Of a stretch of 20,000 nucleotides of DNA, positions 1-19,588 are shown piece by piece; position 1 is the first letter of the stretch, and each line of letters starts with the position of its first letter. The stretch lies in the IMG/VR virus record IMGVR_UViG_3300044986_000857; one strand, given 5' to 3'. The notes under the pieces are model-generated. The model had not been told where the DNA came from. It did not search any database and saw only the letters and a program-made list of their open reading frames with translations. The translations under genes and the position numbers were made by a program. This DNA is from an uncultured virus (IMG/VR IMGVR_UViG_3300044986_000857) (Duplodnaviria > Heunggongvirae > Uroviricota > Caudoviricetes).

Positions 1-1
1 C

Positions 2-472
2 GAGGTTTCGGGCAAGATCAGAGGAATCCCGCCCGTTGGCCCCGGCCAGCTTCTTCAGTTTTCGGGCACGCTGTTTCAAAACAGCGGCTACGTCCCCGGC
101 GTCGGCGAGTTCAGCACGCCTTCGGCCTTCGGCTTCTTCCCCGTCCAGAACGCCAACTTTGTTTTCAATCCCGCCGATTTGTTCGGTATTACCAACACCT
201 ACCGAATCCGCGTCGCGGTGCGCGTCGATGGCGCGTTCAACGACGGGCTTCATTGTATGCTGCGTCAAGTAGTGATCGGCGGCGTAGAGAGCGGTGTGCC
301 GGGGCTTCTGGATTTTGGTTCTGGCGTCGCGCAGATTTACCAAGCAGTCAGCAACACGCGCACCATATCAACTACCAACTGGGTTTGGCTTCGCCCGTAT
401 TTCGCTGCGTACAACGGCGGCAACGGTGCGACGTTGCAAGACGTGACAGTCTTTTTGGAAGAATGGTTCTAA
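2..472 (+). CDS. 5'-truncated hypothetical protein, probably the C-terminal beta-rich part of a virion fibre/spike protein
   Basis: Frame is open from position 2 (EVSGKIRGIPPVGPGQ...) through ORF 179..472 to TAA at 472. Gly/aromatic/beta-rich composition, directly upstream of fibre genes. Confidence 0.6.
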   Translation, partial: EVSGKIRGIPPVGPGQLLQFSGTLFQNSGYVPGVGEFSTPSAFGFFPVQNANFVFNPADLFGITNTYRIRVAVRVDGAFNDGLHCMLRQVVIGGVESGVPGLLDFGSGVAQIYQAVSNTRTISTTNWVWLRPYFAAYNGGNGATLQDVTVFLEEWF

Positions 473-473
473 C

Positions 474-914
474 GTGGACAAGCAACAGGTCATCGAAAAG
501 ATCGCACGCGACGTGTTCCCTGACGGACCCACGGTGCAGAAAAGCAACGTGGCGGTCCTCGGCGACGACGTCGTGCTGTTCGACCCGGCGACAAACCCCA
601 CGGAACCCGAGGCCGTCTATGCGTTCTCGCAGACAGACGGGGTGTGCTCGCTGGTCGACGTCCCGAAGCAGACCGCTGAACAATGGCTGACGGGGCAAGG
701 CTACTCGTCGACGCGCTTGGTGACGCTGCTTGATTTGGAAGCGCGGCTGACGGCGGCGCAGAAGTCGTCGCCGAAGCTGGCGGCGACGCGAGCGTGGACA
801 AACGATTTGCTCGCCGCGAGCATGGCCGATGCAGCGCCGCGTTACGTCTGGCTTCCGGCTCCATACTCTTTCTCTGACGTGACAGCAGAAGCATTTGCTG
901 TTTTGACGCAATAA
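474..914 (+). CDS. hypothetical phage protein (146 aa), possibly fibre-associated
   Basis: GTG start 1 nt after the previous stop, protein-like composition, located between fibre-like genes. Confidence 0.7.
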   Translation: MDKQQVIEKIARDVFPDGPTVQKSNVAVLGDDVVLFDPATNPTEPEAVYAFSQTDGVCSLVDVPKQTAEQWLTGQGYSSTRLVTLLDLEARLTAAQKSSPKLAATRAWTNDLLAASMADAAPRYVWLPAPYSFSDVTAEAFAVLTQ

Positions 915-3768: not shown

Positions 3769-4424
<656 letters not shown>

Positions 4425-4428
<4 letters not shown>

Positions 4429-9507: not shown

Positions 9508-9756
9508 ATGGACCCCCGCGAAATCGCTTTGATCCAATCGCAGCGCGGCCAAGCGCTCGCCATCCCCGGTCGTGAAGTGCAGGTCAGCGGTCTGGGCCGC
9601 GCGACCGGCCCCGCTTCGCCGACGCCGCCCCCGCCACCGCCGCCGTCGCCGGGCGATGCGGGCGCGCAGAGCGCGGGCCTGCTTGGCGTGCCGTGGTGGG
9701 CGTGGCTGCTGCTCGGCGTGGGCGCGTACGCGGCGTATTCTCGTCGAGGCCGCTGA
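9508..9756 (+). CDS. small membrane protein (82 aa; VSGLG motif, poly-Pro linker, C-terminal TM)
   Basis: C-terminus VPWWAWLLLGVGAYAAYSRRGR. Confidence 0.8.
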   Translation: MDPREIALIQSQRGQALAIPGREVQVSGLGRATGPASPTPPPPPPPSPGDAGAQSAGLLGVPWWAWLLLGVGAYAAYSRRGR

Positions 9757-10331
9757 TGCCTACGCCCATCGAGATCGCCCGCCGGGAGCTTGACGCTGGT
9801 GTGCGCGAGCCGGCGGCACTCAACAAGTACGCGGGCGGGCGCGACGAGGCGTGGTGCTCGCACTTCGTGTCGTGGTGCTTCGCGCAGGCCGGCTACCCGT
9901 TCGCGTCGTACATCATCCCATCGCCACGACAGCACAACCCGGCGGCCAGCTGCTCTCGCGTCGCGAGCAACATGCGGGACATCGGGCGGCTCTACAAGCC
10001 GGGCGAGATCACGCCGCAGGCGAACGATCTGATCTTCTACAAAAAGGTCGAGGGCGGGCGCTTCGCTGCACCGGGCGTTCTCGGCCTCGACTTCATCCTC
10101 GGGCACATTGGCATCGTCGAGGGCATCGACGGAAACAAGGTCGTCACCATCGAAGGCAACTACAGCAACAAGGTCGCGCGCGTGCGAACGCCTTTGAATA
10201 GCCCAAGCATCGCGTACTATGGCCGACCGTTGACGACCGCAGAGATCGCGGCGATCGGCGGCATTGGCATCGGTACGCTCGCCGTCGTGGGCATCGGCGC
10301 GTATCTGTTCATGCGGGGACGCAGCCGATGA
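9756..10331 (+). CDS. CHAP-domain peptidoglycan amidase/endopeptidase with C-terminal TM anchor (191 aa)
   Basis: TGATG coupling; AWCSHFVSWC (catalytic Cys), GHIGIVE (His), TIEGN; C-terminus IGIGTLAVVGIGAYLFMRGRSR. Confidence 0.9.
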   Translation: MPTPIEIARRELDAGVREPAALNKYAGGRDEAWCSHFVSWCFAQAGYPFASYIIPSPRQHNPAASCSRVASNMRDIGRLYKPGEITPQANDLIFYKKVEGGRFAAPGVLGLDFILGHIGIVEGIDGNKVVTIEGNYSNKVARVRTPLNSPSIAYYGRPLTTAEIAAIGGIGIGTLAVVGIGAYLFMRGRSR

Positions 10332-11011
10332 AGGTTCTACTGTTGGGCGATAGCCACACCGTCGGCCCCTACGGGCAGGCGCTCGCCGGCTTCTTCAAGA
10401 ACGCGGGTGCTTCCGTCACCGTCGTCGCGAACGTCGGTGCGAACGCGGGCAACTACCTGCCCGGGGGCAAGTACGCCTCGCAGGTTCCATCGCGCGTGAC
10501 AAACCTGCTCGGGTTTGACATAGCCATCATCACCCTTGGAACGAACGATGCGGCGGCGAGCGACAGCGTGTTGCCGGCGACCAGCGCCGATCGTTTCAAG
10601 GCTCTGGCGAACGCCCTACCGTCGAGCAACGTCTGGTACGTCGGCCCGCCGGCCTTTTCCGACAGCGCCGCGCGCACCTACAATCCGATCTTCGCCGGCC
10701 CCGGCAAGGACTTGAACACGCGCGCCGCTGCCGTGTTGAACGAAGCCTTCAAGCGTTTCGGAGCAAAGACCATCGACGCGCGGCGCGCGACGCAGCCTTT
10801 CGTCAATGCCAAGGACATTCACCTTGGCAAGCAAGGCGGCGATGCGTGGGCGCGCATGGTGTTCGAAAAGACGATGGCGCATAAGCCGCAAGTGCCGTCG
10901 AGCCAAGACAACGCTCTGACGACGAGCAAGGTTACTTCGTCGCCGCTGGCGTGGGTTGTCGGCGGGCTGTTGCTCTGGTGGGCGTTTGGTCCGCGAAAGA
11001 AGCGTCCATGA
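10328..11011 (+). CDS. SGNH/GDSL-family esterase with C-terminal TM anchor
   Basis: LLLGDSHT, VGAN, LGTNDA and KDIHL blocks; C-terminus PLAWVVGGLLLWWAFGPRKKRP. Confidence 0.85.
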   Translation: MKVLLLGDSHTVGPYGQALAGFFKNAGASVTVVANVGANAGNYLPGGKYASQVPSRVTNLLGFDIAIITLGTNDAAASDSVLPATSADRFKALANALPSSNVWYVGPPAFSDSAARTYNPIFAGPGKDLNTRAAAVLNEAFKRFGAKTIDARRATQPFVNAKDIHLGKQGGDAWARMVFEKTMAHKPQVPSSQDNALTTSKVTSSPLAWVVGGLLLWWAFGPRKKRP

Positions 11012-15259: not shown

Positions 15260-15261
15260 GG

Positions 15262-15321
15262 CGCGTACCTTGACGTTGGCGGGTTGCACCGGCCTATCCG
15301 GCGCGCTTGTCAAGGTACGCG
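15262..15321. repeat. 13-bp perfect inverted repeat with 34-nt spacer, overlapping the -10 box
   Basis: CGCGTACCTTGAC (15262-15274) and GTCAAGGTACGCG (15309-15321). Confidence 0.85.
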
Positions 15322-15340
15322 AGGGTCAATGCGGTGTCAA
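15312..15340 (-). promoter_or_regulatory. sigma70-type early promoter
   Basis: TTGACA (15340-15335)-N17-TACCTT (15317-15312) at the head of the small-gene operon. Confidence 0.75.
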
Positions 15341-15347
15341 GGGGTGA

Positions 15348-16151
15348 TCAGCGCCGACGTGCCTTCATGCTTCGCCGCGCTTGTGCGGGCAAACCGGCCT
15401 CAAATCGGTCCCACGCTTGTCGCCACGACGTGTCGCCGGGCCGGGCGTACGTTCTCAAATCGGTCATGTACCGCCGCAGCAAACCGCGGTCTGCGGGCCA
15501 ACGCTCGGGGTCGCCTTCAGTCGCGTACGCCATCGCCCACAGCTTCATGCTGCCAGCGGCGCGTCGCTCGTATCCCTCGCGCGTCGCCGCCTCAAACACT
15601 TGTTCGCCAAGCTGCTTGACCTGTTCCTTCTGGCTCAACTCCATCTCTGCGGGCAGGTAGATTACTTGGCGTCCCGTCGTCGACGGCTCGTAGATCAACG
15701 CCGGCTTCTGGACGAGGTGGTAGCCCTTGCGCGCGAGCATTTCCAAGCGACGCGGCCCGAACCAGTCGATCGCGTCTTGCTTCGTGCGGTAGCCGAAGCG
15801 CCAGCCTCGGTGCCTCTTGAACCAATCCGGGTCGCTGCCCGTGGGGAAGTCGCGCTCGGGCGCGCTGCCCGCCGGCCCCACGCCACTCGTAGCCCCCGCC
15901 GCATACGGGCCTTCGCCCTTCTCGTTCTCGACGCGCCACACGGTCAGCGGGTTGTGAAGCCACTCGTCATCATCATCATCAGGGAGCCGCACGATGTCGA
16001 ACGACGCCTGCCCCCATCCTTCCGGCATACCCCATGCCGCTTCCTCGCCGACGTCGAGCGATTCCACGAAGTCGATGAACTCGTCGTCTTCGTTGTCCTG
16101 CACCAACTCGGCGTGCGTGACCAAGTGCCCGTCGATCAAGTAGCGTCGCAT
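15348..16151 (-). CDS. modular hypothetical protein (267 aa): acidic N-terminal domain, NP motif, VWRVENEKGEGPY domain, helical C-terminal domain
   Basis: ORF with conserved upstream motif; protein-like composition. Confidence 0.75.
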   Translation of the reverse strand: MRRYLIDGHLVTHAELVQDNEDDEFIDFVESLDVGEEAAWGMPEGWGQASFDIVRLPDDDDDEWLHNPLTVWRVENEKGEGPYAAGATSGVGPAGSAPERDFPTGSDPDWFKRHRGWRFGYRTKQDAIDWFGPRRLEMLARKGYHLVQKPALIYEPSTTGRQVIYLPAEMELSQKEQVKQLGEQVFEAATREGYERRAAGSMKLWAMAYATEGDPERWPADRGLLRRYMTDLRTYARPGDTSWRQAWDRFEAGLPAQARRSMKARRR

Positions 16152-16182
16152 GGCGGGGAGCCTAGCGCGCCCGGGGCGCTAC
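16152..16182 (-). promoter_or_regulatory. conserved putative leaderless late promoter, copy 4
   Basis: GTAGC-N13-TAGGCT-N7-ATG(16151). Confidence 0.75.
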
Positions 16183-16183
16183 G

Positions 16184-17833
16184 TCAGCGCGGTCCGTGCT
16201 TGCGGTCCCAATCGATCCCGACGCCGGCACCGTATTTTTCCAGCTGCGACGCGATCGAGCGCTTGAAGCGCGGCTCTTGGAGCACCTGTTCGGCGTAGGG
16301 TTCCTCGTTCTTCTCGCCGATGATGTCCTCGGCGAACGCAAGCCACTCGCGCCCCGTCCACGCGAGCCACCACGGCGGCTCCATCTGCATGAGAGCTTGC
16401 ATGACGCGCCGCTGGAACGCGCCCCACTCGGGCTGCAAGAGCACGTCGGCGAGGCTCGTGTACTGCAACAGGTCGACGAGGTAGTTGAGAGCGGCGTGCT
16501 CGCGGTCGATCGGCATCGCCGCGCCCGTGCGGAATCGCGTGTACTTGGGCGGCGGCGGGATGCCGGCGTCGACGTACTTGCCCTTCTTCGCCTCGGCGAT
16601 CACACGCTTGATCGGAATCTCCGGCCCCCACCCCATGCCCTCGGCGAACATGACCCCGACGATGCTCGACGGCGGGATGGGTTGGTGGACCATCGCCTGC
16701 GCCTTGCGCGTCTTGTCGTGCGTCAGGTAGTCGTCGATGTCGACGTCGAGCCACATGTAGGGCACTTCCAGCACGAAGCAGATCGGACGCCCGCCGACCT
16801 TCTGCACCGCGCGCGAGGCGTACATGTCCGTCGCGTTCTGATCGAAGGCCACGAACACGCCCGGCGACGTGCCCTCCCACGCCTTGCGGGATTCATCGAA
16901 CGACAGCCCCGACGTGACGACGGGCCAGAACGCGGCCGTGGACGTGCCGTGGTAGACGAGCGCGAACCGGCCCATCTTCGTCGCGGTCTTCTTGAAGCTC
17001 GGCTCCAAGGGGTCGTCGATGGCGTCGAGCATGAGGGGGTTTTCCTGCGCCTCGTCGCCTTCGTCCCACTCGGGGTTCTTGTACGTCGCCACGCGCGTCG
17101 GCGAGCGAGCGCGCGTCCCTCTCGCGGGTGCGCTCGCCTCTGCGCGGCGCTTCCGTCGCACGGCGTCGGCCACTTCTTCCTTCGACATTCGCATCGCCTC
17201 GCGTTCTGGTCGGCACTTCGGGTAGTCCGCGGGGTCGTCGGAGCGCTTGCGCCCGCACGGCTCGTAGCCGACGACCTCGCCGTCCTCACGGATGGGGCGG
17301 GACAAGTCGACCCAATGCTCGCCGAACCACTTGGTCAGGCCCGTGCGCTCCTTGCGCCCCGCGCCAGCGTATCGCCCGCCGCGCTCCTTGTAGGTCTTCA
17401 CGACCCACCCGCTCGCGTAGGCCGAGGGCCACACGGCGAACTTGCGCTTGGCTTCTGCGACGACGGAGTCGTAGAGGTCTTGGTCGAGGGGTTTGCGCGC
17501 GGGGTTTTCTTCGGGGTTCCTGCGCTTCGCCGCGGCCTCGGCCTCGGCCTGCCGCTCGATGTCGGCGAACATTTGCGCCTCAAAGTCGTCGGGGCGCAGG
17601 CGTTCGCGTCGGTAGAAGGGGTTTGGTTCCGCGGCGATGTCTTCCAAGAGCGCCGCGCGCTCGCGGTAGGCGGCGGCGGCTTCGTCGCCCAGCCGCTCGG
17701 CGCGGTTCCGCAACTCCCGCGCGACCCGCAAGAGCGTTTCCTGCTCGTCGCCGCCCATGCCGGAAATCGCGTAGGTGTTGTAGGACTCTTCCAGAAGCCG
17801 CAGAGCGTCGGCGTCACCTTGTTTGCGTGCCAT
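16184..17833 (-). CDS. multidomain protein (549 aa): helical N-terminus, DUF5872-like domain, ADP-ribosyltransferase-fold (HGT-type) domain
   Basis: AKRKFAVWPSAYASGWVVKTYKERGGRY..GLTKWFGEHWVD..CGR..YPKCRP (DUF5872-like); VYHGTS..GL..GVFVA..IPPSSI (ART/Tpt1-like fold). Confidence 0.7.
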   Translation of the reverse strand: MARKQGDADALRLLEESYNTYAISGMGGDEQETLLRVARELRNRAERLGDEAAAAYRERAALLEDIAAEPNPFYRRERLRPDDFEAQMFADIERQAEAEAAAKRRNPEENPARKPLDQDLYDSVVAEAKRKFAVWPSAYASGWVVKTYKERGGRYAGAGRKERTGLTKWFGEHWVDLSRPIREDGEVVGYEPCGRKRSDDPADYPKCRPEREAMRMSKEEVADAVRRKRRAEASAPARGTRARSPTRVATYKNPEWDEGDEAQENPLMLDAIDDPLEPSFKKTATKMGRFALVYHGTSTAAFWPVVTSGLSFDESRKAWEGTSPGVFVAFDQNATDMYASRAVQKVGGRPICFVLEVPYMWLDVDIDDYLTHDKTRKAQAMVHQPIPPSSIVGVMFAEGMGWGPEIPIKRVIAEAKKGKYVDAGIPPPPKYTRFRTGAAMPIDREHAALNYLVDLLQYTSLADVLLQPEWGAFQRRVMQALMQMEPPWWLAWTGREWLAFAEDIIGEKNEEPYAEQVLQEPRFKRSIASQLEKYGAGVGIDWDRKHGPR

Positions 17834-17864
17834 GCGCGCGAGCCTATCGCGCTTGGAGCGCTAC
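17834..17864 (-). promoter_or_regulatory. conserved putative leaderless late promoter, copy 5
   Basis: GTAGC-N13-TAGGCT-N7-ATG(17833). Confidence 0.75.
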
Positions 17865-17865
17865 G

Positions 17866-19557
17866 TCAGCGGCGTCGGCGCGGGTTGGGCAGCGGCTCGC
17901 GAACGCGCGTCACGGGCCAGACCTGTTCGCGCGCCAGCGGGCGGTAGGTCCAGATGACGCTGTCGGTGTTGAGGTCTTCCCAATCGTAGTCGCGGACGGC
18001 TTCTTTGACGCCTTCTAGGTCCAGCGTGTCTTTGCCGAACATCGCCTGCGCGGCTTCGTCGGCGACGAAGGGGTCGCGGTAGACCGCGCCGTCGTAACCC
18101 AGCGTCTCCAACGCGCGCTTGAAGGCCGGCGTCTCGACGAACGCGAAGGTGTCGGCTGCCATCGCAAGCGACACGCGAATCTGCTCGTCTCGGTCGTCGA
18201 ACTCCGCGCCGTCCCAGATGTCGAGGTACTGCGCCAACGGAAGCTGATCGAAAGACAGGCCCAGCGCCACGCCCGGCTCGTCCTCGTCGACTTCGTGCGC
18301 TTCCTTGATCTGGTACGAGAACGCCGGCAGCTTCATCAGGTTGCGCGTGATGGCCTTTTTCGGTTCGTGCCACGAAGGAAGCGCCTTCGCGTTTTCGCGG
18401 TTCGACAAGTGCCGGAGAATCTTCACCGTCTCGTCGAACGGAGTCTTGCCGTCCCAATACCCAACCAACGTCAGCACGTCGTAGAAGGTCAGGAAGTGGT
18501 ACTTGATGACGAGCGGGTTCTTCAAGCACAGGTACGCCGCGAAGACGTTGCTCTCGTCGGTGAACCTGCCCTGCTGCGACGAGTAGATGGACGCGACCTC
18601 GGGCGACGTCGTGAAGGAGTCCATGACGAGGCGAGCTTGCAGCGCACCGCCGCCAGCGGTCTGCCCGCGGTAGAACACCTTGGGCGAGCCGTCGGCGTTC
18701 TTGACGTGCTCGCTCGCGTCCGCGAACCACGCGCGGAACTCGGGGCTGGCGGTTTCGGGGTCGAAGGCGGGGTTGCTGCGGCGCATGTTCGGTGTTCCGG
18801 CGTCGTCGACGCTCTTGCGTTGGAAGTACTCGCGAGCCTCTTGCAAATACTTGCGTTCGTATTCTTGCAAGTCCTCGTCGAGCCGACCTTCGTACAGGTC
18901 TAGGGACATTTGGTGTGAAGACAGTTCATCCTCGGCGTCTTTCTGCTGCGCCTCTGCTTCATCGTACATCGCTGTCGTTTCGAGCAGCGTGACGGCGCGT
19001 GTATCGTAGACGGCGATCTCGTAGCTGCCATCCGGCAGCTTCTCAAACGCGCCCGTAACACCCGCCTTGAGCAAGGCTTTGCGCCCCTCCATCGGGCCGA
19101 GAAGAGCGAAGATCGCACCAATCTTTCCGCCGCCGTGCTCGCCTCGGCGCTGTCCGCGTACGTTGTAGATGGTCCCGTTGGCGCTGCGTTGGACTCTCGA
19201 CTCAAACCCGCCCACGCGCACAACGTCTTCCAGCAGGGCGGCCAGATTGTCGCGCAGCCAGCGCGGCGTTCCCATCACCGGGTCATACAAACCCTTGGTC
19301 TTTATCAGCACCTTGTGCTTGGTGGGCCGATTGCCGCCGTACTTCAAGTACCTCTCAGCAATACCCTCGTCGGTTGCGAAGTACACGCCGGGGCCAAGGA
19401 TGCTAGAGAAGCCGCCCCCAGACGCTCCTTCGCCCGTGCCCACATAGCTGACATCCGGCTTGTTGCCGGACCAAGGGCGACCGCAGTTGTACGCGATCAC
19501 CTGTCGGGGCAAAGCCGGGTTTGGTGTGTCTTCCGCCGCGGGATTCTTGCGTGCCAT
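17866..19557 (-). CDS. polyvalent-type protein (563 aa) with two ART-PolyVal-like ADP-ribosyltransferase domains
   Basis: Domain 1: VGTGEGA..GPGVYFATDEGIAERY. Domain 2: SPEFRAWF..NADGSPKVFYRG..FTTSPEVASIY..VFAAYLCLKNPL..LGYDGAVY. Confidence 0.7.
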   Translation of the reverse strand: MARKNPAAEDTPNPALPRQVIAYNCGRPWSGNKPDVSYVGTGEGASGGGFSSILGPGVYFATDEGIAERYLKYGGNRPTKHKVLIKTKGLYDPVMGTPRWLRDNLAALLEDVVRVGGFESRVQRSANGTIYNVRGQRRGEHGGGKIGAIFALLGPMEGRKALLKAGVTGAFEKLPDGSYEIAVYDTRAVTLLETTAMYDEAEAQQKDAEDELSSHQMSLDLYEGRLDEDLQEYERKYLQEAREYFQRKSVDDAGTPNMRRSNPAFDPETASPEFRAWFADASEHVKNADGSPKVFYRGQTAGGGALQARLVMDSFTTSPEVASIYSSQQGRFTDESNVFAAYLCLKNPLVIKYHFLTFYDVLTLVGYWDGKTPFDETVKILRHLSNRENAKALPSWHEPKKAITRNLMKLPAFSYQIKEAHEVDEDEPGVALGLSFDQLPLAQYLDIWDGAEFDDRDEQIRVSLAMAADTFAFVETPAFKRALETLGYDGAVYRDPFVADEAAQAMFGKDTLDLEGVKEAVRDYDWEDLNTDSVIWTYRPLAREQVWPVTRVREPLPNPRRRR

Positions 19558-19588
19558 GCGCGCGAGCCTACCGCGCCCGGGGCGCTAC
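19558..19588 (-). promoter_or_regulatory. conserved putative leaderless late promoter, copy 6
   Basis: GTAGC-N13-TAGGCT-N7-ATG(19557); the TAG of GTAGC is the stop codon of the upstream gene. Confidence 0.75.

Follow-up and report, generated by a model that had tools for sequence, protein, structure and literature searches.

The window (the whole stretch of DNA analysed; its contig has 77,793 bases, of which this is 20 kb) derives from an uncultured, high-GC, tailed phage of lake water, and its 24 matches among DNA sequencing runs, from 18 studies, are all from lake or fresh water, with no RNA run among them. A tail-fibre-like protein, endolysin-like and CHAP domains, and a GDSL lipase are also coded in the window, and the locus is thus phage-encoded. 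Three effector-like genes, P0001, P0002 and P0003, all lie on the minus strand, with tail and lysis genes on the opposite strand, and each stands behind its own copy of a repeated cassette (Table 1). Searches of a cultured-phage collection returned weak or distant matches only and no close relatives with DNA, while among viral contigs no relative locus was recovered and a degenerate search pattern made from a P0005 peptide matched nothing. Genome contigs yielded 20 loci, every one a distant DUF5872 relative, and metagenome contigs yielded 80, of which only L021 (2097 bases, 92% identity) is close. Contigs from four sequencing runs were near-identical short fragments without joints and are uninformative on module gain or loss.

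The intergenic cassette, GCGCnnTAGGCTCnCnCnCATG, is present in three copies versus 0.21 expected, and none of 200 shuffles reached three. In copy 1, a TAGGCT box lies 7 nt before the P0001 ATG; in copy 2, the palindrome is one compensatory pair off that of copies 1 and 3, and the upstream stop codon falls within TGACGT. The cassette overlaps the start of the coding sequence as ATGGCACGCAA and supplies the MARK start that the preliminary description had pointed out in two genes and that is indeed found in P0001 and P0002. A repeated cassette does precede all three genes, as was claimed, but its description as a promoter fared less well: a sigma-70 consensus scan did not flag it. As RNA, the cassette hairpin folds no better than shuffles (z 0.4-1.0). 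The placement of the effector genes opposite the structural and lysis genes, together with their own repeated cassettes, speaks against their being expressed late and packaged into virions: the layout looks like one of early expression, whereas late expression would be expected of packaged proteins.

Table 1. Genes, Asn-Pro (NP) sites and cassette copies in the window; module limits are given in residues.
Feature	Position	Strand	Remarks
P0001	17866..19557	-	563 aa; leader 1-16; ART-like module 1 ~17-199; long helix ~186-249; linker with MRRSNP; ART-PolyVal-like module 2 ~265-548; tail LPNPRRRR
P0002	16184..17833	-	549 aa; helical module A 1-105; linker; DUF5872 module B 112-250; linker; ART-fold module C 266-549
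P0003	15348..16151	-	267 aa; acidic N-region 1-65; conserved domain from H66-N67-P68; basic tail
NP5-6, P0001 (M-A-R-K-N-P)	19540..19545	-	RxNP site, N-terminal leader
NP13-14, P0001 (TPNP)	19516..19521	-	second NP of leader pair
NP262-263, P0001 (M-R-R-S-N-P)	18769..18774	-	RxNP, linker before ART module 2
NP347-348, P0001 (LKNPLV)	18514..18519	-	inside ART domain
NP558-559, P0001 (LPNPRRRR-stop)	17881..17886	-	C-terminal tail
NP71-72, P0002 (EPNPF)	17618..17623	-	helix N-cap between helices 50-67 and 72-79
NP106 and NP110, P0002 (R-R-N-P-E-E-N-P)	17501..17518	-	pair in A-B linker
NP253 and NP265, P0002 (Y-K-N-P ... Q-E-N-P)	17036..17077	-	pair at B-C linker
NP67-68, P0003 (LHNPLTVW)	15948..15953	-	first residues of conserved domain
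Cassette copy 1	19555..19585	-	palindrome GCGCC-CCG-GGCGC
Cassette copy 2	17831..17865	-	palindrome GCGCT-CCA-AGCGC
Cassette copy 3	16149..16183	-	before P0003

Pfam, structure-atlas and Foldseek matches bear out the domain labels initially proposed (ART-like, DUF5872-like and ART-fold). In P0001, residues 288-353 match Pfam ART-PolyVal (E 1.8e-5; 25.9 bits, under the 31.2 cutoff), PF18760 (ART-PolyVal) is the precomputed database label of the protein, and the cutoff is passed by relatives such as P0024 (78.8 bits) and P0032 (66.5 bits). Residues 17-199 resemble ART-PolyVal clusters in the structure atlas (feature score 0.93; TM 0.57-0.66), and a single-sequence AlphaFold model was uninformative (pLDDT 33.8). 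P0002 contains Pfam DUF5872 at residues 115-213 (E 9.8e-17), and its AlphaFold2 model, built on a 35-sequence alignment (mean pLDDT 81.8), has Foldseek matches to ART toxins, Tpt1/KptA, DarT and PARP and two low-confidence linkers, 106-113 and 238-263, with pLDDT below 50. For P0003, residues 67-187 match phrog_1106 (E 3.9e-10); its homologues are labelled PF26820 in the database, and the Pfam scan run here gave no family. PDB sequence searches returned empty or trivial matches. On their predicted domain content, then, the three proteins are phage polyvalent proteins, with multiple effector-type modules per chain: two ART-like modules in P0001, and DUF5872 plus an ART fold in P0002. Across the three and their relatives, the module types include ART-fold, DUF5872, PF26820-like, GNAT, ParB-like and SprT-like, with up to four Pfam families in a single relative.

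Asn-Pro dipeptides number 11 in the three proteins, versus 1.89 expected. P0002 has five against 0.69 expected (p=0.0004), with Pro after 5 of its 10 Asn, P0001 has five against 1.02 (p=0.0014), and the single NP of P0003, against 0.18, is not significant by itself (5000 shuffles each). In unrelated phage-like ORFs (516 of at least 150 aa, from 100 loci) the background NP ratio is 1.05-1.50; with a 1.5-fold background allowed, the count of 11 still carries a Poisson p=1.8e-4. The Pro codons that follow Asn (16 CCG and 10 CCC, versus 159 and 102 overall) reflect general usage and thus give no RNA- or DNA-level signal.

Gene coordinates in the preliminary description, and those of MRRSNP, the two P0002 pairs and the P0003 site, were exact, and its view that NP falls at domain boundaries applies to nine of the 11 sites, which lie in leaders, linkers, tails or module starts; NP71 and NP347 are domain-internal. 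NP71, modelled as a helix N-cap within module A, is not a boundary, and neither is NP347, since N347 and P348 are invariant in 8 of 8 aligned P0001-type sequences within the ART domain; an xNP[LVFY] site likewise occurs inside the ART-PolyVal domains of relatives. NP5 and NP13 of P0001 share the 16-residue leader, the alignment of ART-like module 1 beginning at residue 17, and an internal Met stands three residues upstream of the RxNP in MRRSNP. In P0002, three of the four junction NPs are in linkers with pLDDT below 50; NP253 lies within linker 238-263, and NP265 where the ordered part of the C-terminal domain begins. H66-N67-P68 of P0003 is invariant in the homologue alignment, at the domain start, and it alone among the sites has a folded context that is fixed.

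The recurrence of NP, as first described, is real, but the dipeptide alone is too short, the true consensus in homologues being the longer R-x-N-P. Related proteins contain 114 RxNP sites versus 9.6 expected from composition, with 55 of 167 proteins carrying one, and these sites form 53 clusters of unrelated flanks, including 43 singletons; permuted or substituted control motifs occur 5-36 times in the same 167 family proteins. In 49 GARP-rich relatives, NP is found 121 times versus 26.6 expected, 31% of the 392 Asn have Pro next, and Arg occupies position -2 at 77 of the 121 sites (64%, a 6.5-fold enrichment), while eight control dipeptides reach 0.5- to 2.1-fold. Among 149 homologues, the NP z-score of 18.0 is the highest of 400 dipeptides. 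Close doublets are also in excess, 19 of 104 consecutive pairs being no more than 12 residues apart versus 9.7±2.9 expected, and RxNP punctuation often comes as a double with a spacing of 3-12 residues. Downstream of NP, no conserved context and no PTH was found. The two classical Pseudomonas-phage polyvalent proteins are without such punctuation (no RxNP in the 4899 aa of USP_25 gp31 and one in the 1649 aa of F116p60), which makes the motif lineage-specific, and none of four distant proteins representing longer fused forms has it. Judged by the sequences compared, R-x-N-P is restricted to this phage lineage. Literature searches found no use of the term "RxNP" in the present biological sense and, for Asn-Pro with phage cleavage, nothing relevant by title and abstract among the matches listed. 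P0168, a distant DUF5872 protein, has an XkdF-type Peptidase_S78_2 domain and no RxNP.

Mapping of domains in 15 relatives places the motif at module edges. NP lies no more than 20 aa outside the edge at 31 of 48 internal domain edges, versus 8.5±2.8 edges (maximum 19 in 5000 trials) when NP is placed at random, although these counts are not independent, since 11 of the 15 proteins contribute the end of DUF5872, a single homologous site. In the same relatives, NP occurs 1.36 times per 100 aa outside mapped domains versus 0.23 times inside them, so that the enrichment in linkers on which the boundary claim had been staked beforehand was borne out at 5.9-fold; ten control dipeptides give contrasts of 0.4- to 2.85-fold. 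Alignments likewise upheld the conservation of NP at boundaries in homologues. At the DUF5872 junction, P254 never changes and N253 is conserved to at least 90%, in contrast to the variable residue x and the variable sequence that follows, and relatives show T-Y-R-x-N-P at the first site of the P0002 B-C linker and R-x-N-P-L at the second. Of 94 DUF5872 copies with 30 aa or more after them, 48 are followed by NP, versus 1 of 22 copies that end the protein (Fisher p=2.7e-5). Similarly, the P0003-type domain ends in ARRR-stop in the window and runs on as QRRNP or YRRNP where a further module follows. Module C homology stops exactly at NP, with unrelated sequence upstream in 12 of 12 NP-bearing cases, and the distance from NP to the ART core ranges from 2 to 11 residues; NP is therefore no constant element of the fold. 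R-x-N-P is thus a strongly enriched module-edge motif, kept while its flanks and neighbouring modules change. In the endpoint profile of an all-against-all BLAST, NP is heaped near HSP starts, a pattern confounded by the dominant DUF5872 module.

That NP is merely common in Pro- and polar-rich linkers is scarcely credible. Density outside domains is likewise raised 1.7- to 1.8-fold for AP, TP and GP, but this is set against the shuffle results for P0001 and P0002, the top rank of NP among dipeptides, the excess of RxNP over composition and an outside/inside contrast that no control dipeptide reaches. A structural role is possible but doubtful. NP would then be an Asx-Pro turn or a helix or strand N-cap that ends or starts folding units, with no reader or cutter, and the basic residue might aid solubility or insulate the linker. 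In accordance with this, NP71 caps helix 72-79 in the model, low-GC DUF5872 homologues have NP capping their first helix (P[TN]NPxLYxxVKxEAK), H-N-P-L-T-V-W is invariant at the P0003 domain start, N-P-L-M-L-D opens module C with ordered residues, and NP is mildly enriched in unrelated proteins too. A general cap, however, should not be lineage-restricted, and the two F116-type polyvalent proteins lack RxNP punctuation; moreover, a structural role leaves unexplained the Arg at -2, when other x-Pro and Asn-x dipeptides reach only 0.5- to 2.1-fold, as well as the doublets, the fact that NP stands at varying distances from the first conserved residue of the domain, and the sites in linkers of pLDDT below 50.

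It is also conceivable, if unlikely, that the motif is a fusion scar or shuffling joint. Small genes would start M-(x)-R-x-N-P from the shared 5' cassette, and internal motifs would be inherited N-termini, left after loss of stop codons and intergenic cassettes or after recombination at micro-homology. Met is 5.6-fold enriched at -3 and -4 of RxNP, yielding MRxNP at many internal sites, the MRRSNP of the window included, and the extension of the cassette into the coding region, with its two MARK starts, points the same way. Furthermore, 16 of 159 M-initiated family proteins have NP in their first 12 residues (nine as RxNP), the homologue P0155 runs past the P0001 stop as ...RMRFNPKKK and then an additional module, and one ParB-like module follows NP behind three different upstream partners. 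Yet the motif is far commoner at junctions than at N-termini; N-terminal DUF5872 proteins start M..RR[KR]PLD without NP, whereas RxNP precedes internal DUF5872 copies; and idle scars should decay, which is hard to square with the conservation of the DUF5872 junction. The Pro codon shows no special bias after Asn, and some 8 fixed bases offer very little homology for recombination. Finally, it is decidedly improbable that basic R/K-x-N-P turns, which presumably resemble SPKK minor-groove hooks, tether effectors to the travelling phage DNA. Linkers and termini are indeed very basic (KRRNP, LPNPRRRR, ARRR tails) and the low-GC relative P0098 has KKNPKKKRSKKSPSRK-type runs, but the surroundings of many sites are acidic, as in RRNPEENP and in QENP after DEGDEA. 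Polyvalent proteins have been proposed as DNA escorts (PMC5512222), which would suit such a tether.

The reading preferred here, at a probability of roughly one in three, is that a factor in trans reads R-x-N-P as a short linear motif, with a processing site the likeliest function. An endopeptidase would be the most likely trans-acting factor, encoded elsewhere on the 78-kb genome or present as a peptidase module within some family members; its action would be to trim leaders and to part the modules from one another in the manner of polyprotein processing, cutting at the Asn-Pro bond or beside the Arg. Less likely, a sorting or packaging adaptor may read the motif. The protease site or virion-packaging tag put forward in the preliminary description is a candidate function on the present evidence. 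NP doublets no more than 12 residues apart are expected of excised spacers, and lineage restriction fits co-evolution with a lineage-specific reader. Peptidase-type modules do occur in the family (a SprT-like zincin in two of 30 relatives, a transglutaminase-like core in one of 30), and zincin peptidase modules have been predicted to release polyvalent-protein domains, with no cleavage motif given in section 8, where this is set out (PMC5512222). Scission at Asn-Pro has precedents in FlhB/YscU, cut between N and PTH, and reovirus mu1 (PMC3207474), and in RsgI (PMC10328401).

Several observations weigh against processing by a protease at these sites. The viral protease gene that the preliminary description had suggested looking for was not found in these 20 kb: the 26 window ORFs scanned gave no peptidase family (23 at E<=0.001, and 14 of those plus the three effector genes at E<=1). 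Most endopeptidases disfavour Pro at P1'. The Asn-Pro autocleavages documented in the sources cited all need a folded catalytic context (PMC3207474, PMC10328401), and the linker sites are predicted to be disordered, which argues against cleavage. So does the location of the motif in single-module relatives with RxNP, 3-9 residues from the N-terminus, where cleavage would remove almost nothing. The Met enrichment at -3 and -4 points to a gene-fusion origin, and NP71, NP347 and the H-N-P of P0003 are plainly structural. More tentative than the reading in trans is the proposal that R-x-N-P is a cis-acting processing signal of a tailed-phage polyprotein strategy, in which early effector modules (ADP-ribosyltransferases, acetyltransferases, ParB-like nucleases) would be synthesised in strings, to be cleaved at Asn-Pro by a lineage-specific peptidase or through assisted Asn cyclisation, the common junction permitting free module swapping.

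Few carriers of anti-host effectors in phages and plasmids are commoner than polyvalent proteins, and a lineage-specific R-x-N-P junction motif provides an exact, residue-level hypothesis for domain release or sorting. Should it be a processing or sorting code, module boundaries would become predictable in uncharacterised phage proteins from metagenomes, of which there are thousands, and a designed linker for protein co-delivery might be possible; should the polyprotein proposal be true, polyvalent proteins would have their first defined cleavage code. Even as a structural or evolutionary joint only, the motif would still mark the points at which this lineage shuffles its effector modules.

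The polyvalent proteins of Iyer, Burroughs, Anand, de Souza and Aravind (2017; PMC5512222) likewise shuffle ART-PolyVal, GNAT, ParB-like and zincin-like modules, and proteolytic domain release is also proposed there; this founding paper predicts autoproteolysis, no site or junction motif is named in its sections 8 and 9, and the word "linker" is absent from its main text. The present proteins differ from the classical USP_25 gp31 and F116p60, which lack RxNP punctuation, and are small (267-563 aa), with individual upstream cassettes. The concept put forward in the preliminary description has its counterpart in phage T4, where the Alt ADP-ribosyltransferase is packaged and injected (PMC5512222). 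The capsid-targeting sequence (CTS) and the gp21 prohead-protease sites of T4 internal proteins provide injected effectors, including this ART, with a short N-terminal tag and a short consensus cleavage site that a phage protease reads. The T4 prohead-protease motif, L/I-x-E, is unrelated to RxNP, however, and the effector genes here are not part of a late operon; the ORFs scanned in the 20-kb window of the 78-kb contig yielded neither a prohead protease nor a capsid gene.

Two further systems share the Asn-Pro element. Asparagine peptide lyases and other Asn-Pro autocleaving proteins (FlhB/YscU, reovirus mu1 and RsgI) have a scissile Asn-Pro that is cut through cyclisation of the Asn side chain, without a protease; in the sources cited above they cut within a dedicated folded domain, whereas the motif here sits in predicted disordered linkers beside many folds, with pLDDT below 50 at the linker sites, unrelated neighbouring folds and no conserved residues after NP. 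Picornavirus-type 2A NPGP peptides are likewise NP-containing signals that separate polyprotein modules without a protease. Ribosome skipping at 2A needs N-P-G-P and a eukaryotic ribosome; G-P follows none of the 11 NPs in the window, and NPGP occurs three times in the 167 family proteins.

The Asn-Pro (NP) dipeptides that a preliminary description had noted in three adjacent window genes, encoding proteins P0001, P0002 and P0003, were all located exactly where it had placed them, and the observation is confirmed and sharpened into a defined R-x-N-P (RxNP) junction motif. Relative to shuffled controls (5000 shuffles of each protein), NP is over-represented in P0002 (five versus 0.69 expected; p=0.0004) and P0001 (five versus 1.02; p=0.0014), with one versus 0.18 in P0003. 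Background sequences exhibit a mild general over-representation (ratio 1.05-1.50 in 516 ORFs, each 150 aa or longer, drawn from 100 loci), and the combined count of 11 versus 1.89 expected retains p=1.8e-4 even with a 1.5-fold background allowed. The proposal that NP falls at domain boundaries held for nine of the 11 sites, which lie in leaders, linkers, tails or module starts, and failed for two domain-internal ones: NP71 of P0002, a helix cap in the AlphaFold2 model, and NP347 of P0001, invariant within the ADP-ribosyltransferase (ART) domain in the homologue alignment. Three perfect RxNP copies occur in the window (RKNP, RSNP and RRNP), and its YKNP represents the family's T-Y-R-x-N-P, one residue shorter; no NP with Arg at -2 was found in the other 19 window ORFs.

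P0001-P0003 and their relatives are polyvalent proteins as defined by Iyer et al. 2017 (PMC5512222), a known kind. The AlphaFold2 model of P0002 (35 homologues, mean pLDDT 81.8) comprises three modules, the last of which, module C, is a predicted ART fold on weak but consistent scores. Its best structural matches in the PDB are ART folds, namely the Rhs toxin TreX (E 9.5e-4), pertussis S1, Tpt1/KptA and scabin, and its matches among viral models are DarT, PARP-like and rifampin ART proteins. P0001 appears to consist of two ART-like modules, the first being a lead and not proof: residues 17-199 resemble ART-PolyVal clusters in language-model features (0.93) and structure (TM 0.57-0.66). The second matches ART-PolyVal at residues 288-353 (E 1.8e-5; 25.9 bits, under the Pfam cutoff of 31.2) and is kept in seven homologues. 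In P0003, an acidic N-region precedes a conserved domain, phrog_1106, at residues 67-187; a Pfam scan of the protein returned no family, and its homologues carry a PF26820 label in the database. Relatives join such modules with GNAT, SprT-like zincin, transglutaminase-like, Tpt1/PARP-like and ParB-like (DGNHR) modules. Four relatives come from contigs of considerable length: P0031 (99.8 kb), P0010 (36.9 kb), P0017 (34.1 kb) and P0005 (29.1 kb). Module content varies even among close relatives: P0154, 90% identical to P0001, has its long inter-module helix shortened by about 35 residues, and P0155 is missing the whole first ART-like module and continues beyond the P0001 stop with an additional one.

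Features of the window and of protein P0002 (nucleotide positions in window numbering unless residues are stated)
Feature	Position	Strand	Description
P0003	15348-16151	-	267 aa
P0002	16184-17833	-	549 aa
P0001	17866-19557	-	563 aa
P0002 module A	residues 1-105		helical N-domain (AlphaFold2 model)
P0002 module B	residues 115-213		DUF5872 (Pfam, E 9.8e-17); reaches about residue 250 by homology
P0002 module C	residues 266-549		C-terminal domain (AlphaFold2 model)
Cassette copies	16149-16183, 17831-17865, 19555-19585	-	repeated intergenic element
TTGAC-box region	15260-15347	-	downstream of P0003
CHAP-domain protein adjoining GDSL-type lipase/esterase	9693-11011	+	E 1e-9 (CHAP), E 5e-6 (GDSL)
219-aa protein	3769-4428		upstream of CHAP/GDSL pair
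Longest open frame at left end	1-690	+	5' end open
Tail-fibre-like protein		+	with YadA-stalk repeat
Endolysin-like protein		+	
Gene run converging on + strand genes		-	last three are P0001, P0002 and P0003

With P0002 as the query, an exhaustive profile-free search found 1489 proteins at E<=0.001, of which 335 also reach E<=1e-10; 150 of the 1489 were taken. Across 149 of these homologues, NP occurs 296 times versus 108.7 expected, and its z of 18.0 is the top of all 400 dipeptides. Only WF, CG, PC, WV and KC have higher ratios, and these are of a kind that the conserved WFGEHWV and PCGRK stretches of DUF5872 contain. Among the 49 relatives with a high-GC-type composition, NP rises to 121 versus 26.6 expected (ratio 4.55), such that 31% of all Asn residues have Pro next, and Arg stands at -2 in 77 of the 121 sites, a 6.5-fold enrichment compared with 0.5- to 2.1-fold for eight control dipeptides. 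The 167 collected proteins contain 114 RxNP sites, distributed over 55 proteins, versus 9.6 expected, while control motifs are far fewer (R.PN 6, N.RP 6, R.QP 5, R.DP 12 and K.NP 25). Because of this Arg enrichment and these counts, R-x-N-P is taken as the true consensus. Its flanks fall into 53 unrelated contexts after single-linkage clustering (5/10 identical residues on either side).

The link to module boundaries also extends to homologues. Domains were mapped in 15 relatives, and at 31 of their 48 internal domain edges an NP lies no more than 20 residues away on the outer side, versus 8.5±2.8 for random placement (maximum 19 in 5000 trials), the edges being non-independent, with the DUF5872 end recurring in 11 of the 15. 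Enrichment in linkers was likewise borne out, at 1.36 NP per 100 aa outside mapped domains versus 0.23 inside, a 5.9-fold contrast set against 0.4- to 2.85-fold for ten control dipeptides. Where 30 or more residues remain after DUF5872, NP follows it in 48 of 94 cases (some of the 48 being helix-cap NP of permuted DUF5872 halves), versus one of 22 where nothing comes after the domain (p=2.7e-5); NP precedes DUF5872 in 16 of 66 versus one of 59 (p=1.5e-4). Proteins with an N-terminal DUF5872 start M-x-R-x-R-[RK]-P-L-D, without NP, and internal copies are preceded by RxNP. Homology to module C starts exactly at N-P-L in 12 of 22 mapped homologues, the closer ones, regardless of upstream sequence, and five of these 12 are single-module proteins beginning M(x)RxNP. 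Anywhere from 2 to 11 residues separate NP from the ART core, and the linker NP is therefore not a fixed part of the ART fold. The P0003 family offers an independent case: its domain closes with ARRR-stop in the window and reads QRRNP or YRRNP where another module comes next. A clear example of one module changing partners at an NP joint is the ParB-like module, found behind NP with three different upstream partners, including DUF5872 in some relatives and a P0003-type domain in another; it comes after N-P-(R)(R/P)-E-P-Y-S-D-V-E in P0164, P0016, P0019 and L021, a related metagenome locus (93-1133). Finally, NP doublets are frequent, with 19 of 104 consecutive pairs at most 12 residues apart versus 9.7±2.9 expected.

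On the sequences compared, RxNP is restricted to one lineage. In Pseudomonas phage vB_PaeM_USP_25, the polyvalent protein (4899 aa) contains 11 NP versus 7.1 expected and no RxNP, that phage's other 39 proteins have 15 versus 19.1, and F116p60 (1649 aa) has four versus 1.9, with one RxNP. In distant low-GC DUF5872 proteins, NP mostly does no more than cap the N-terminus of the first DUF5872 helix. Many distant relatives (P0074, P0077, P0079, P0082, P0083, P0087, P0088, P0093, P0095 and others) have the DUF5872 halves swapped, with the WFGExW...PCGR half ahead of the NPxLYxxVKxEAKxKFxVYPSAYA half, which suggests circular permutation or two separable sub-domains. Another distant protein, P0168 (1033 aa), combines an XkdF-type phage serine protease domain (Peptidase_S78_2) with DUF5872 and a Zeta-toxin kinase domain, and has no RxNP.

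As RxNP is short, invariant and lineage-restricted in otherwise unconserved, disordered linkers, it may be a short linear motif that some other molecule recognises, either a processing site or a sorting or packaging tag, a tentative reading given a joint probability of roughly one in three. Within it, a processing site is most likely and a tag the alternative; the cleavage or sorting mechanism originally proposed is plausible but unproven. RxNP would serve as a signal read in trans, and its positions agree with this: it separates modules and also occurs in short leaders and tails; doublets could flank spacers that are excised. Peptidase-type modules occur among relatives (SprT-like in 2/30, transglutaminase-like in 1/30), P0010 and P0011 each having the SprT-like one, and Iyer et al. 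(PMC5512222) predict that zincin peptidases free the domains of polyvalent proteins. Cleavage of Asn-Pro bonds is reported for FlhB/YscU and reovirus mu1 (PMC3207474) and for RsgI (PMC10328401), but these known autocleavages all require a folded context, whereas RxNP here lies in linkers predicted to be disordered. Also against processing, no peptidase family was found in 26 scanned ORFs of the 20-kb window (the contig has 77,793 bases), and a cut in single-module proteins would take off just 3-9 residues. Packaging is opposed by gene placement: P0001-P0003 occupy the other strand from the structural and lysis genes and have a cassette apiece, which does not look like late expression.

A purely structural Asx-Pro cap, which is real at some NP sites, is rather unlikely to be the answer, leaving the Arg at -2, the doublets and the lineage restriction unexplained. 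It is doubtful, too, that the motif is a fusion scar or shuffling joint: Met is 5.6-fold enriched at -3 and -4 and N-terminal RxNP copies exist, but the motif is much commoner at junctions than at N-termini, and N and P are conserved within surroundings that vary. A basic turn tethering DNA is improbable, and chance is scarcely credible. The RxNP junction motif appears new to the literature, no description having been found in the literature searched, including the article text of PMC5512222.

The three genes had also been credited with a common promoter cassette. The repeated element stands before all three, its 22-base pattern GCGCnnTAGGCTCnCnCnCATG occurring three times versus 0.21 expected, with a near copy ahead of the homologous gene in L021 (60-95); its promoter role is putative, and a sigma-70 consensus scan did not report it. 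The cassette includes the stop codon of the upstream gene and a palindrome with 5-bp arms around a 3-base centre (GCGCC-CCG-GGCGC), which in copy 2 reads GCGCT-CCA-AGCGC, with one compensatory pair changed; the conserved part of the cassette continues into the start of the coding sequence (ATGGCACGCAA, encoding MARK). The cassette may act as a promoter for leaderless mRNA, an operator or a hairpin signal. A leaderless promoter would fit the TAGGCT box 5-7 nt ahead of the ATG, with no Shine-Dalgarno or ribosome-binding site in between; the TAGGCT-N7-ATG pattern by itself lacks significance (24 of 200 shuffles have at least three), and the cassette's RNA folds are unremarkable. Downstream of P0003, a stretch containing three TTGAC boxes (CTTGACACCGCATTGACC...TACCTTGAC) is kept in L021 (1135-1228) after the homologous gene and extends as far as the next ATG; this stretch may act as another promoter or regulatory region, opening the next gene block.

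The window, with a G+C content of 65%, is part of the 77,793-base contig of an uncultured freshwater tailed phage. Its DNA was found again in lake-water or freshwater metagenome runs (24 rows, 18 studies), of which one row may represent the sample of origin, and contigs from four such runs are near-identical to it; nothing similar to P0001, as DNA or protein, was found among 50,697 cultured-phage records. The longest open frame at the left end, Arg/Pro-rich, of low complexity and without a family match, is probably not the true reading frame there, and its three NP are to be kept out of background counts. The 219-aa protein matches only C-terminal parts of large endolysin/tail-lysozyme PHROGs, and together with the CHAP and GDSL proteins it makes up a multi-enzyme lysis or wall-degrading set.
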